This document shows, in pieces, positions 3,053 through 9,512 of a stretch of DNA of 64,000 bases; position 1 is the stretch's first letter; each line of letters starts with the position of its first letter. This DNA comes from Fimicolochytrium jonesii (Eukaryota), in NCBI RefSeq assembly GCF_025526975.1, contig NW_026515674.1, positions 558,001 to 622,000 on the forward strand, in the 5' to 3' direction. The position numbers and the translations under genes are program-made. Below the pieces are notes generated by a model, which had not been told where the DNA came from, did not search any database, and was given only the letters and a program-made list of their open reading frames with translations.

Positions 3053-3176
3053 CTGCTCGGCAGCGACTTGCTTATACACAAGGTAGATGCTTAGACGATG
3101 TCAATCTTGGGCAGTTGCGGAGGTTCGGTTCCAACGCGCAATCTCGAGTCACGTCACGTACAGTACGGAATGAGAC

Positions 3177-3195
3177 TGCTCATGTCACATGAGCA
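3177..3195. repeat. Palindrome/hairpin TGCTCATGT-C-ACATGAGCA
   Basis: The 9-bp arms are exact reverse complements. A second small stem, GATACA/TGTATC, lies at 3204-3224. Confidence 0.9.
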
Positions 3196-3745
3196 ATCAA
3201 TAAGATACAATCGTTATCTGTATCACGTTTGGAATACAGACGCGATGCGTGATCATTAGCAATGTACAACAGGGTTGTGTTCATCAATAAAGCGCGTAAG
3301 ATAAAAGGACAACCACACACGATCGCAGTTCGAGAGAACGAAAGAGTGGGTTGGAAGACGCGAGGCAGGGTGGGATCACGTGGTTTATAATTGGGCTATT
3401 AGTCAGGACGGGATGGGCAGCTGCCTGAATGCCTTCGGAGTTCTCTTTCTTTCTTTCTTTACATCCTTGCGCATTTTCTCACGCTATAGACATTAGAACA
3501 CCACTCCCTCCCACCCCTTGTGTTCTTATGTACTACTGCGTACTGCTGATGCACGCCAATACACTGCTTCTTCATCCACATCGTTATTCGTGAGTGTGTA
3601 GGGAGGGCGCCGAGCACAGGAAACCCAGTCCCCAGGGCTCGCCAACGCACAGACCACTATCAAACAATACAACAGTGAATAGATGTGCCTTCTCCCTTTT
3701 GTCATACTTTGCTATAGCCCAATATTCTCACTACCGAGCGATGCG

Positions 3746-6226
3746 ATGGAAGTCTCCAACGTCTTGGGAGCTACAACGGGCAGTACAGACCGGCAGCTGA
3801 GCCCCGGCGAGTTCTTCAGCTCCGACGAGCGAGAAAGTAAAGACGACGATCAGATCAAGGCCGAGCTACATACCTATCTTGCCGAGTATCTCTGTGGCTG
3901 TAACAAAAATACGTGGATCACCAAGCTGCGTAACGTACTGAGAAGTATACCTGACCAACTGTTGCCCAGCATAACGGTCAAAGCATTGATTTCCAGCGCA
4001 CCGGTCTTCTCCGTATGGTCAAGCGACGTATCGCAAACCTGGTCTCGAAAGTTGTTATCATCATCTACCGGATTGGCCACAGCTCCAGGATCGACCTTTT
4101 CTGAAGCGTTCGCAACTCGCAAACAATGCACCTGGTCATCGATGGTCAAGCGCGGGATGAGCATGGATATTGACGGTTCAATATCCCGTGAACCTTTGTA
4201 CGTGTTATCTCGTACCGAAGCTACGGGGCGAGAATGCATGGCAACCAATATTAGCGAGGCGAAGGAGCGTGGGTCGTACCACGAGATCAAGAAGATCGCC
4301 ACCTGGTATCTGACAGAGAGGACCAACGGTAATCTTCCTGCCCTAGATGAAGCTGCCGAGTATGCGTTGCAAATGCAAGGCATACAAGAGCAACGAGAAC
4401 AGGACAAGCGTAGGGAAGACCGCAAACGGAAGTTGGAAGAACGCGAGGAGGGTGAGAAGAAGACGACCAAACGAGCAAAGCACCTTCGTATGCCAGCGGA
4501 AGAAGTGCAACACAGGAAAGAAAAGGCGGAACGAAGGGAAAAAAACCCGACAGCGACACCAGTTTCAAAGAAATCCAGAGCCAACGTGGCCAAAGAGAAG
4601 CAAGCCACCAAACGAATTCGTGCGATCTCTTTCCGTTTCTACCCACGGCCTGAACTGGAGAGCACCCTCAGCGCTTGGTTACGCATAGCGGATTTTATCG
4701 ATGATCACGTTAAAGAAGTCCTCGATTGATTTGCTACACAAGGCGAAAAACCGAGCTTTCCTTACCTTCGCGAGACGTACGTCTGTCTCTCAAGGAAAGA
4801 ATACGAAAGGCATCTGAAGGCAGGTACGCAATCCACCTTGAGTGACCTGGACAAACGCGTTCGTTACATCGACATGCCGTACGACGTTCAACAAGCGGTA
4901 GCTCAGGAGAGCGCGGACAACGTGCAGTCGGCACAGACAAACTATGAGAAAGGTCACAACTCTGGATATGAGACAAGAGGAAGAGACCCTTCCCGTCGAT
5001 GGAAGACTCTCAAGTTTCTTGCCGCTGGAATGTGCGTTCGTACCGACGGAGAGGTCGTGATGTTTCCAACCTTCAATCCGGAGGCTGACAGCGGAGTATA
5101 CCTGAAGGACGATCTGATTCATTTTCTCTGTCATGAGCAATGGCAGACGAGCCGTCACCGCGGAGTTAGACGTGAGAACCGGCGTTACGAACCCACCAAA
5201 CACTGGGAAAATCACTTAACGTGTGGGAAGACGAAAGGCGGACGAAGCTTCACTGTCCGCCATGACTCGTTGACAGGAAGGTGGTTCCTGATCATGGCCT
5301 ACAACGTTTGGCAGAAGGGTGCCCCTTTCCGCCAAGAAAAGCTAGAAGAGATCTTAAAAGATACCCGACGATGCGCGAAACGCGCTAGAAACTGGGTCCG
5401 GCATCAGGAGGAACTGTTCAACGTCAGTCACGCGAAGGGTAACATGTGTGCTATCGACCCTGGGGTTCGGGTGCCTTGGACTTGCTACGATGTCCACGAG
5501 AGAAGCTTTTACGACGTCTATCCCGACCTGTGCAATGTACTTGCTAACCGGTACAACGACATTGCTCTTCGTCAGCAACGTCAATCATTGGGAAACTGCA
5601 ACCGGACCGCACGTAAGAAGTGACGCAAGGGAAAACGTAGGTGGAAAAAGAAGGACGATCCATTGAAGCGACGCAAAAAGAAAACTCTCTGGAGGAAAAG
5701 CCATGCTTACCATCTCTCGCGACTCTACGAGAAAGCCAACGGTCTGGTCCGACATGCCCACAACGCCTTTGCGAACGCGCTCGTTAGACAATACGACATG
5801 ATCGTTCTACCGGAGTTCATGACGGCCGGCATGGTTCGCCGACGCCGCAAACTTTTGAAACTCCCACCGTTATCTAACGATCCGGGGGACGACAGCAACA
5901 ATCGAGTGCCCCGTGAAGGGAGTTTTCGATTGCACAAAACCACTCGGAAAGTTATGCAGAATATATCACACCATGCATTTCGCCAACGGTTGTTCGCCAA
6001 GGCCGAAGCCGATCCTTATCGACGAAAGGATGTGATATGCACCACGGAGGAATACACGACCAAGCAATGTCCGTTCTGCCATTTCGTACATCATACGATT
6101 GGCAGCAACAAGGTCTTCAGATGTGGGAATGCAGAGTGTGGCTTTGTTGGTGGGCATGATTGTGTGGGAGCATTCAATATCGGTCTTCGATCGATTGTGA
6201 AGAACGAGATTGCTCCCCGCACATAG
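3746..6226 (+). pseudogene. Fanzor (TnpB-family RNA-guided endonuclease, Fanzor2/IS607-like) interrupted by two in-frame TGA codons
   Basis: ORFs 3683-4729, 4838-5623 and 5663-6226 share one frame (offsets 1155 and 825 nt), with TGA only at 4727-4729 and 5621-5623. Motifs: TnpB N-terminal RAISFRFYP; RuvC-I AIDPGVR (D 5456); IVLPEF with Pro at the canonical Glu position; alternative Glu in EEYTTKQC (6047); Zn finger CPFC...CGNAEC; RuvC-III HDCVGAFNI (D 6158). Confidence 0.9.
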
Positions 6227-6365
6227 TTTGCTATTCATTGTCCCTACCTACCGGGACGGGGAGGACAACCGAGACGATATACTTTGTGATGGATTGGTAT
6301 AGGCACTCCCCATTAGATAGGTGTAAGCCTCATCAGACGCACTGAATTTGTTTGTTGTTCTCGCA
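6227..6365 (+). ncRNA. Candidate Fanzor omegaRNA (scaffold plus flanking guide)
   Basis: The position immediately 3' of the Fanzor frame is where TnpB/Fanzor omegaRNAs are encoded. Potential stems: TTGTCC/GGACAA (6238-6268), GTCCC/GGGAC (6240-6257), AGGC/GCCT (6301-6330). Inferred from position only. Confidence 0.4.
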
Positions 6366-6433: not shown

Positions 6434-8968
6434 TCACACAGATACGGGTGATCGTCTACGCTCAGGAGCACTGCCGATAGGATGGTGCTTGGCCCATTCA
6501 GTCAAGGTGATGTTGTACGTCTTCTTGAGCAGTCCACTGTTATGGAAAGGCGAAAGATATGCACCGGGTCCTGGCGAAGAAGCAGATCCGGAGGATTTAA
6601 ACCGTTTTTCCTGCATGTAGGGGGTTGTATTAATATTTCCACATGAGAATGACTCCCTCCGGAAAGCGTGGATGCGTCTTACCGTTGTCATGATCTTCCC
6701 ACTGCCCCTTCGCACATTCCGCTTGTCCAGTACTTGCGGCTCATACTGTCCCGGACCAGGAAGATTTGCTTCGATATTCGCTGATATTCAGGAGATTGTA
6801 AGTGCGGTCAGGTTCCTTCCCATGGTCATCTGACAAAAGAGCCGCTCGGCCCCATTACCTTGAAATATTTCACGCCGCGTTCCGCTGACCATTCCGCTCA
6901 ATTTCGGAACTCGATGCTTTTTCAGTGCCTCATACGCCTTGCCCAGCTCATAAGCACCTGGCGGTGGTAGTTCTGCGAAACTTACTGTTTAGCATCAGCC
7001 GGTATGCTGTACGCAAAATCAGGTCTCACCTGCATGCTGCGTTCCCGTGAATCGTTCTGTTTGCGAGCCGAAAACGGGAATGTGCGCCTTGGCGGGATTG
7101 ACCAGTAGGTGTCCAAGTTTGAAATGTGTTGGTCCTTGATCCATCATTCGTGTCATCCTGGTTACGGGCCGACTTCCGGCTGATCGCGACCGTGTTGAGT
7201 TAGCGACCTGTTCGTGCGCTTCCTGCTCAGCTAGAGCGTCCGCTTGTGTTTGATTGTAGGCTCCCGGACCGGGGTTCAGATTCTGTTGGGAATATCATGA
7301 GAGACGTGTGATGTGATCATCGGGGCTCGCGGATGACCTGCTTACTAGTTTCGGCTGTGGAAAACGTTCGGTCACTGAGCCGAATGCGTCATACCGCATC
7401 TTCTGCGCTTTCTTTGTGATTCTCTGTGCTAGACTGTCGATCTACAGAGGAGGTTCTCATAGTTATAGTCAAAACTGGTCCACCCACGTAGTCACACCGG
7501 ACCTTACCTCTTCGACGCTATAGCTACCCGGGGCCGGTGTTGAGCGAACTCTATCATCTCGTTCAAACCTGGATGCAGTTGCACCAAACGACTGAGATAC
7601 GAGCGGCCTCTGCATGCAATGAAGGATCTATAAGCGTGCTCCGACCCAAGTCTAAAGAAAGGTTCCACAAACCTTCTTAGTGGGCTTATCTGAGACATGG
7701 TAAGCGCCTGGAGCAGGAGTATTCGTCTGCTCCGTCACCGAAAAGTGCGCTGGATCAAGATGCCCTGTGGTCGTTGCGAAGCGGATACGTCCCCTCGGTC
7801 TCGCCAGGTTCTCTGTAAGCGGCGATCTCACTTCATATTGTCCTGGCCCGGGTATGTTTTTCTTTTTACAATCCTTCAAAATCTCATCCGTCACGCGCAC
7901 ACAGGGCGCCAAGGTCATGATGGCCGCCTCGTTGCCGGTTCCGGCTTTCTGGAAATACTGCTGGACTTGCGAAGACTCGTAGAGGCCAGGCGCTGGCGTA
8001 TCGTATATCTTGAAAGTCAGCCGCCCACCATTCTCTGCTGAATCGTGCGCGAAAGAAGGACCCCGATGCTCGTGGCGTGCCCGCTCAGCAAACGACGTTA
8101 TAGAGTTGTAAGCAGGCTCCGAGTTGGCTTTTTCTTTTGGTGGTTTGCGCGGCACCAGGTCGCCTTCGGAGTTCTCGCGGAAACCGAACGCCATTCGAGG
8201 AGGGGGTATACTCGGCGCTCCATGCTTCCTCTTCCACACAATCTTCCGGTTTTTATTTGGCACCGGGTATGTTGGCGGCTTCTTGCCGGTTGGGATGAGA
8301 TGCCCGTGTATCGACGGCTCAGCTCCATCGACCTCCGCATCCAGGTCCGCACCCTCGGGCCCATGAGCCGCGGCGATGGCTGCTTGTTCCAGGGTGACAT
8401 CGGCGGGTGCATCTGTGATCAACTTCTGCACTTTCGCTGGTGTATCCCATTTGGCATCCCGCCCAGGCTGTCTCGTCAATGGGTGCGTCCTACTGCCAAA
8501 CTCCGGCTCGTGCATCTTCACCACCTTCTTTGCGACGTGGAGTGCAATGTCATCGTAGAACCCTTCATAGGTCCCTGGGCCGGGTGTCGTGCTGTTGACT
8601 TTTCCGAACCGTGAGACCTTTGACATGCCAAACTCTGGCGCTTTGTGTGGGCTGTGGAGCGCCGGTCGTAGGAGCTCAACGGGATATTGACCTGGTGCTG
8701 GCCCCCGGATGACGGATTGATCGAAGAATGATGAGCGTGGGGTTAGGGAGGAGAATGGTGCATAGCTAGAGGGAAAGCGTCGATAAATCAGTAAGGTCCG
8801 CTGATACAATGATCCGTAGCTAAAGCCATCTTCCACATACCCCTCAGTCCCATGCAGTTTTCCAGCATAAAGCGCAATGTCATCGGGGGTGTAAGCTCCC
8901 GGCCCGAGCTTTGGATTGGCATGATCGGCATCGGGGGCCATAAATCGTCTTTCAGAGCGAGAGTACAT
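6434..8968 (-). CDS. STPG2: Sperm-tail PG-rich repeat (SHIPPO-repeat) protein, STPG2-like, multi-exon
   Basis: Starts MYSRSERR...LGPGAY and carries many P(G/A)PGxY repeats (PAPGQY, PGPGTY, PAPGLY, PGPGQY, PAPGAY, PGPGAY). C-terminal LLKKTYNITL. Confidence 0.8.
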
Positions 8969-9512
8969 GGCTGGCGGCTTTTCAGTCCAATGAGTCCAAC
9001 GAGATATTTCCACAGGTATGGCCTGAAGTGAACGCCGTTGGGAAAAGGAAAAGATGGCACGCCGTCGAAGTAAGGCAGGTGCCACAAAGAGAAAGGGGAA
9101 TTTACGTATGCTGCCACATTCGCACGGCGCAAATTCCTGGACTCCAAATGTCCGAACCCCGTGAAGCAAGCAGTTTAAGCTTATTTTTTGGAAGCTTGCG
9201 CTTCCCTAGCCCCAACTCCGATTTGAGATACACCAAATGCACAGCAAACAATCAGCGAAGCGAGTTCTCACAATAATAGTAAGTTGTCCTTTTCTACGAC
9301 ATGCGCATGGGCGGGGTTGCGTATTGTCAGAAATTCGACAGCGGTTAACAAATGACGGCGCGAATTAGTGTCACTTCATGGAAAACCCCAACCGAGAGTG
9401 ATGATGGAGCACGGAAAATTATACTCCGACGGAGAGCGCGGGAAAGGTGGTTGCACCTACAATATGATAGCTAATAAATAATCTATGAACATGCGGTGGG
9501 GCCGCGCGATTC

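Follow-up and report, generated by a model that had tools for sequence, protein, structure and literature searches.

Within the window, the 64,000-nucleotide stretch of DNA analysed here, positions 3746-6226 of the plus strand form a single frame of 826 codons closed by TAG, with in-frame TGA at codons 328 (4727) and 626 (5621); a decayed IS607 tnpA underlies its start and a predicted guide RNA follows its stop (Table 1). The original prediction had read three separate ORF calls as one intronless frame of about 826 codons. The translation bears this out, and the FRFYP, DPG, LPEF, Glu, Cys and final Asp motifs all lie where that prediction had placed them. The gene is intergenic, flanked by two minus-strand features, a frame weakly matching adenylate kinase and a PG-rich repeat gene, and it is the only Fanzor2 copy in the 64 kb. 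A Nup93 frame in the window is 99% identical to a Fimicolochytrium jonesii protein, against 46-61% for other chytrids, so the earlier call of a zoosporic fungus was right; this match and the eukaryotic neighbour genes place the Fanzor2 gene in a eukaryotic genome.

Table 1. Features of the Fanzor2 element and its surroundings in the window.
Feature	Position	Strand	Basis
Fanzor2 gene, 826 codons, two TGA (4727, 5621), likely recent pseudogene	3746..6226	+	translation, profile, fold
Fanzor N-terminal domain, +1 frame of old tnpA, predicted mostly helical	3746..4254	+	model, profile
Decayed IS607 tnpA (serine recombinase), -1 frame	3793..4266	+	tblastn E 2e-5, NF033518 E 0.0085
Lys/Arg-rich linker, candidate nuclear localisation signal	4406..4474	+	
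FRFYP, start of WED/REC core; F296 at 4631	4631..4645	+	
RuvC-I DPG, Asp571, aligned to ApmFz2 Asp324	5456..5464	+	
LPEF, Pro689 at 5810; canonical RuvC-II Glu position read as Pro (assignment of the original prediction)	5807..5818	+	
Alternative catalytic Glu769 (6050) and C4 zinc finger Cys775/778/793/798	6047..6139	+	
His804-Asp805 (Asp at 6158): RuvC-III Asp kept, conserved Arg replaced	6155..6160	+	
Predicted omegaRNA scaffold and right end	6240..6324	+	fold, alignment of three loci
Hairpin; long stem (predicted omegaRNA scaffold)	6240-6257; 6258-6311	+	
Predicted pseudoknot; conserved GG	6246-6250 with 6318-6322; 6320-6321	+	
Flank, predicted guide sequence; conservation among three loci stops	6325..6345	+	

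Between 10037 and 57120 lie ordinary eukaryotic genes encoding a TRM5-type methyltransferase, Utp14, a pantothenate kinase with an ARMT1-like domain, tubulin cofactor D, Nup93, an FAD oxidoreductase, PRP38 and a WD40/bromodomain protein. The PG-rich (SHIPPO) repeat gene (minus strand, 6434-6787 and 7652-9205) ends about 110 nt from the right end of the element, and the predicted guide is antisense to its likely 3' UTR. A 12-bp near-perfect hairpin is present upstream of the element, at 3174-3198.

The frame carries the parts of a TnpB-like nuclease. As had been proposed, the RuvC domain is rearranged, with a DPG motif and a Glu (Glu769) placed six residues before the first zinc-finger Cys (Cys775). 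The profile search suggested with the original prediction did return TnpB-type profiles, well above what chance would give: Pfam TNB (E 3.5e-8) and OrfB_IS605 (E 2e-6), and NCBIfam guided_TnpB at E 4e-16, whose 59 bits fall under the curated cut-off of 100. The claim that all three catalytic residues are kept stands for the triad itself (Asp571, Glu769 and Asp805), which aligns with the ApmFz2 triad named in PMC11832414, but not for its setting, where Arg-Asp reads His-Asp. His804 stands where all 15 aligned relatives have Arg, the residue also given by the family motif of PMC3627910, a C4 finger followed by Arg-Asp.

A database search with residues 285-826 gave 26 matches, 17 of them under 1e-90; 17 of the 26 span 60-99% of that segment at 37-55% identity. 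The nine species-named matches among the 17 under 1e-90 all come from chytrids (Borealophlyctis 5, Geranomyces 2, Thoreauomyces 2). A family profile searched against 1.84 billion representatives recovered 47 proteins at E up to 1e-30. Twenty of the 150 listed matches were looked up, and those with names came from Tilletia (a 31-member cluster), Amoeboaphelidium protococcarum and further chytrid copies. Because its named members belong to these groups, the clade is, judged by sequence, fungal and aphelid with a patchy spread. When viral contigs were scanned with the family alignment, 83 pattern matches but no relatives came up, so a giant-virus source is not supported. The Asp-to-Glu spacing is 198 in the window protein and 191-204 in most close members.

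By closest sequence and predicted fold, the window gene is a Fanzor2. Its best PDB sequence match is the mimivirus Fanzor2 (ApmFz2, 9b0l), at E 5e-5 for the single sequence and 9e-14 when the family profile is used; the next match stands at 0.015. The same chain is the best Foldseek match (E 4e-13) to an AlphaFold2 model built from 26 sequences (pLDDT 77.7, pTM 0.73). Structural alignment of the two gives a Z of 16.4 and an rmsd of 4.0 over 418 residues, pairing model residues 88-821 with residues 53-517 of the chain, and the next structural match is a TnpB at Z 14.0. The first aligned pair, model residue 88 with ApmFz2 residue 53, already includes part of the ApmFz2 N-terminal domain. No Fanzor1 chain occurs among the 14 profile matches or among the matches listed by two fold comparisons. 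The gene is also associated with an IS607 tnpA, which is decayed in the window, intact in the relative L001 after predicted splicing, and visible as NF033518 matches in the related proteins P0003, P0010 and P0012. Carriage by a non-IS607 eukaryotic transposon family, a Fanzor1 trait, is not what we find, as an IS607 tnpA overlaps the gene. The preference of the original prediction for a Fanzor2/IS607 type over a Fanzor1 type is upheld by these sequence, fold and tnpA results.

The phylogenetic evidence points the same way with less force. In a careful RuvC tree (51 rows, 195 columns, after removal of 10 redundant, long-branched or compositionally odd rows), the clade has 100/100 support and lies among Fanzor2/pro-Fanzor-like rows, and 10 Fanzor1-like rows, which are viral proteins selected by motif and not curated entries, stand apart with 99/98 support. 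This tree replaced a first quick tree that was suboptimal, being 17.6 log units worse than a constrained tree. AU tests rejected neither joining of the clade with the Fanzor1-like rows (p 0.26) nor nesting inside them (p 0.11). Of the structure and tree checks that the original prediction had proposed, the fold falls best on 9b0l, whereas the tree, with the clade outside the Fanzor1-like rows, agrees with a Fanzor2 placement but is short of proof. The clade might instead be related to Fanzor1, or stand between Fanzor2 and Fanzor1 while still residing within an IS607 element. Its large size (~830 aa), long RuvC inserts, wide Asp-to-Glu spacing and fungal hosts would suit such an origin, as would the AU results and the proposal in PMC10711439 that Fanzor1 derived from Fanzor2. 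We nevertheless find this highly improbable: the best tree separates the two groups with strong support, profile and fold matches favour ApmFz2, PMC10711439 did not find Fanzor1 in IS607 elements, and PMC10530073 labels two members of the clade family5, as it does the mimivirus Fanzor2.

The original prediction overlooked two features, the RNA element at the 3' end and a decayed tnpA in an overlapping frame. This ghost underlies the first ~170 Fanzor codons. It contains eight stops (3838, 3901, 3931, 3952, 4102, 4171, 4189 and 4252) and retains the RVS motif of tnpA at 3883-3891; aligned to a relative's TnpA, it reaches a local score of 168, against 52 for the best of 1000 shuffles. No frame upstream of it in the window shows a recognisable TnpA HTH. 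The related proteins P0003, P0010 and P0012 carry IS607 transposase segments at their N-termini, and these match the -1 frame of the window at 3793-4143. As gene models, the three join TnpA segments to the Fanzor frame, and they are likely mis-spliced calls of two overlapping genes, not real fusions. That gene callers fuse both frames into such chimeras is part of the reason why cataloguing of the clade has been poor.

A metagenome scan yielded 116 pattern matches, which reduced to three related loci, L001, L002 and L003. Removal of one 67-nt GT-AG stretch from L001 (4204-4270, with a branch-like ACTAAC) leaves a stop-free 293-codon TnpA and, in the +1 frame, an 805-codon Fanzor, the two overlapping by ~245 codons. 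Removal of a different 67-nt GT-AG stretch from L002 (1819-1885) leaves a Fanzor of 837 codons and a TnpA frame that still has one stop. In both loci, TATAAA lies ~110 nt ahead of the tnpA start. The window is intronless and colinear with the spliced forms of both. We predict that one spliceosomal intron interrupts both frames in L001 and in L002, and that both proteins are likely produced from one stretch of DNA in these loci, with the intron common to the two frames; a third intron site is suggested by P0043, from its protein alone. Folding of L002 exon 2 as a single sequence gave a pLDDT of 39 and was left out.

Comparison of the window with L001 and L002 bears on how each frame has been constrained. 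Between L001 and L002, identity is 61% for the Fanzor frame and 64% for the TnpA frame, and their differences are flat across codon positions (0.19/0.28/0.27), the pattern that double constraint should give. The window reaches 48% (L001) and 41% (L002) identity for the Fanzor frame, against 33% and 32% for the TnpA frame, and shows an excess of differences at third positions of Fanzor codons (0.36/0.39/0.56 against L001, 0.38/0.40/0.61 against L002). Where it aligns with L001, the window overlap has no stop in the Fanzor frame and seven in the tnpA frame. The third-position excess and the low TnpA-frame identity indicate that the overprinted frame was selected, and by this comparison still kept as protein, after tnpA had decayed.

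The overlap is not confined to fungi. We surveyed a viral sample of 78 loci (from the best 80 of at least 406 confirmed) and a prokaryote-binned, mostly cyanobacterial sample of 80 loci (the best 80 of 288), in which 36/78 and 69/80, respectively, had a tnpA match. An open +1 overlap of at least 300 nt (median ~590 nt) was present in 23 of 26 viral and 59 of 67 prokaryote-binned scorable loci, although the loci counted are copies related to one another, and choosing them by their similarity to long queries may have enriched for the overlap type. Under stricter filters and with both genes on the same strand, the +1 frame was stop-free in 20/24 viral and 43/44 prokaryote-binned loci, against 1.55 and 0.69 stops expected from synonymous shuffles. 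Opposite-strand tnpA genes had 23-43 stops in this frame (6/6), and plasmid IS607 tnpA controls had 4-5 (3/3), two of the latter overlapping the next gene by 7 nt. Because the long overlap recurs in such a large share of the filtered loci, the Fanzor2 N-terminal domain likely originated as an overprint on tnpA.

A profile made from 30 overlap-type N-termini supports a relationship between these proteins and the window protein. It scores 12.6 bits on window residues 34-106, where none of 200 shuffles exceeded 5.8, and 81 and 64 bits on P0002 and P0008; P0047 reaches 5.5 bits, and P0016, P0052 and P0079 stay under 5. Of nine Fanzor2-like proteins without an overlapping tnpA, it matches only two. 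On this profile evidence, the window N-terminal domain is homologous to the N-termini of the viral and cyanobacterial overlap-type proteins. A different account would keep the nuclease call but regard the open +1 frame as a by-product of tnpA codon use, the Fanzor starting at a Met near codon 165. Several database entries of the family begin at such a Met, pLDDT is low at residues 1-14 and in parts of 105-170, and a synonymous shuffle yields only ~3 stops per tnpA, so the frame would be easily open. We regard this account as unlikely, since the frame is free of stops in most loci where some are expected, is closed in the divergent and plasmid tnpA genes, stayed open and conserved in the window after tnpA decay, and encodes residues that align with the ApmFz2 N-terminal domain from residue 88 onwards.

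Several individual loci deserve mention. In the viral loci L039, L047, L049, L061, L064 and L068, tnpA lies on the strand opposite the Fanzor2-like gene and the +1 frame is filled with stops; L039 and L064 still keep an N-terminal W...SxKLWxP-like motif. Among L084-L161, which are mostly cyanobacterial, an ATG is often found within a few bases of the +1 frame start, near the tnpA start, and the two genes may begin almost together. The Fanzor2-like genes of L082 and L083, in contigs assigned to Patescibacteria and Myxococcales bins, group in the tree with a viral-contig protein, and these contigs are possibly misbinned. In one giant-virus bin, three related frames of ~800 codons (L163, L165 and L166) are Fanzor1-like and have a zinc finger interrupted by a long insert.

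The nuclease gene in the window has likely become a pseudogene only recently, and its product is predicted to be inactive. Its two stops imply ~40-60 neutral substitutions, roughly 2% (95% range 0.2-9%). It departs from 31 of 238 conserved columns (13%), within the 3-21% seen in 14 of 15 relatives (39% in the remaining one), and its decay therefore appears recent. CpG-driven decay was not seen, the CpG observed/expected ratio being 1.18 against 0.96-1.02 in host frames. Two explanations of the stops were rejected: recoding or editing to Trp does not fit because at codon 328 relatives carry a variety of residues, none of them Trp, and 3746-6226 offers no canonical in-frame intron whose removal would eliminate either TGA. 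A live gene, with stops that are assembly errors or are read through or edited, would imply a working or domesticated Fanzor. The absence of any frameshift in 826 codons and the retention of the triad, zinc finger and 3' RNA element are compatible with this, as are the intergenic position of the single window copy and the long loss of tnpA while the Fanzor frame stayed selected. However, two independent TGA codons, the residues of relatives at codon 328, the additional loss of Arg804 and an annotated public product that comprises only the first 327-aa piece make a live gene very unlikely.

Downstream of the stop codon, the window, L001 and L002 have CCTACCT, a long stem and ATAGGTGT in common. 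This 3' element is conserved in three of the four loci aligned, the more distant L003 retaining part only. Fourteen named pairs are 97.6% paired over the three loci, and in one of them both partners have changed. Taken by itself the fold signal is weak: shuffles did equally well in 89 of 500 cases, and the folding z is -1.8 at best. The five pseudoknot pairs are possible in 3/3 loci and are nearly invariant. Rfam gave no match at E up to 1; a second match to the predicted guide is absent within the window, and no left end, terminal repeats or TAM were found around the window element. By analogy, the right-end layout is predicted to fit the pseudoknot and fixed flanking base of IS607 RNAs in PMC10711439 and the GG end in PMC13565253.

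Taken together, the window very probably holds a recently inactivated, transposase-less copy of an IS607-type element, consisting of a Fanzor2 with two stops, a decayed tnpA read in the -1 frame, and a right end with a predicted guide RNA. From IS607/TnpB biology (PMC13565253, PMC10711439), TnpA of intact members would be expected to excise the element and insert it at GG; Fanzor2, with an RNA composed of the right end and its flank, would cut the emptied donor site, and repair would restore the element. The two proteins could be made from the same exons through two start codons, by leaky scanning or from two transcript starts. In the window lineage, tnpA decayed first, the Fanzor frame with its N-terminal overprint remained under selection, and the nuclease broke later; a lineage lacking tnpA might survive by homing or with TnpA supplied in trans.

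A wider proposal, to which we give an even chance, is that fungi host an IS607 transposon of bacterial origin, now fully eukaryotic and still transposing, with a serine transposase and an 800-aa RNA-guided nuclease encoded in two frames that share a spliceosomal intron gained at several sites, and that the Fanzor2 N-terminal domain was born overprinting tnpA in a pro-Fanzor ancestor and outlives tnpA. PMC11832414 shows that this domain, which touches both RNA and DNA, makes the fold of RuvC complete. The overprint, if true, would explain its origin as a de novo domain in another frame of a transposase. Whether any IS607 transposes in a eukaryote is a question that PMC3673617 leaves open. L001, whose two genes are intact and interrupted by a predicted spliceosomal intron, is a candidate for such transposition that can be tested. 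Intact relatives of the window gene (L001, P0002 and P0008) are candidate large Fanzor2 nucleases from eukaryotes. The copy in the window belongs to a known class and is likely dead; its anatomy matters more.

The novelty claimed in the original prediction was overstated, as Fanzor2 in fungi is published, two partial clade members are catalogued and this copy is likely a pseudogene without Arg804. Fz2 is reported broadly in fungi in PMC10432273, in whose supplement, one file of which was not readable, searches did not find the motifs of the window clade. Table S5 of PMC10711439 lists a short Borealophlyctis Fanzor. The tables of that paper hold 33 F. jonesii rows, none with the clade's motifs, and in its main text overlap, reading frame and intron never occur. 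Data S1 of PMC10530073 contains two partial clade members, Fanzor50_2726 and Fanzor50_2284, assigned to family5 like the mimivirus Fanzor2. IS607 is described as having two overlapping ORFs (PMC3673617). The literature searched (excluding subscription papers, ISfinder, Repbase, figures and preprint supplements) contains no description of near-complete nesting of tnpA in a Fanzor2 frame or of a shared intron. Against this literature, what appears new is the dual-frame architecture with its predicted shared intron; Fanzor2 in fungi was known.

Known systems resemble the window element to different degrees. SpuFz1 of Spizellomyces punctatus (PMC10432273) likewise has a chytrid host, a rearranged RuvC and a 3' RNA guide, but lies between 30-nt inverted repeats without an IS607 tnpA. 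The Fanzor1-type proteins of F. jonesii itself (PMC10711439 Table S2) form one unrelated family in the 21 of 33 rows compared. ApmFz2 (mimivirus, PDB 9B0L; PMC11832414), the closest fold, with an alignment that takes in part of the N-terminal domain, shares the aligned DPG, alternative Glu, C4 finger and last Asp and an IS607 context; for the window element, a pseudoknot-type RNA is predicted. In contrast, the window protein is longer (826 vs 520 aa) with longer inserts, structural identity is 16%, the predicted scaffold is ~85 nt vs 205 nt, and the window copy is broken and lies at a fungal nuclear locus. Fanzor50_2726 and Fanzor50_2284 belong to the window clade and by eye are near-identical to P0047 of Tilletia controversa, which matches the family profile at E 5e-93; both are partial, lacking the N-terminal part, and the available text of PMC10530073 does not describe the clade, its tnpA or its introns. 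Cyanobacterial pro-Fanzor IS607 elements (PMC10711439) and IS607-like elements of eukaryotes, among them Acanthamoeba Ac3 (PMC3673617), place a TnpA with a MerR-type HTH and resolvase domain beside a TnpB with DPG and the alternative Glu. The cyanobacterial loci have, in our survey, the same long +1 overlap as the window relatives, and Ac3 has a 100-aa insertion at the ORFB N-terminus. The fungal-type relatives differ from both in their predicted spliceosomal introns through both frames and their larger nuclease, with an Asp-to-Glu spacing in the window protein that exceeds the 120-160 pattern of PMC10711439.
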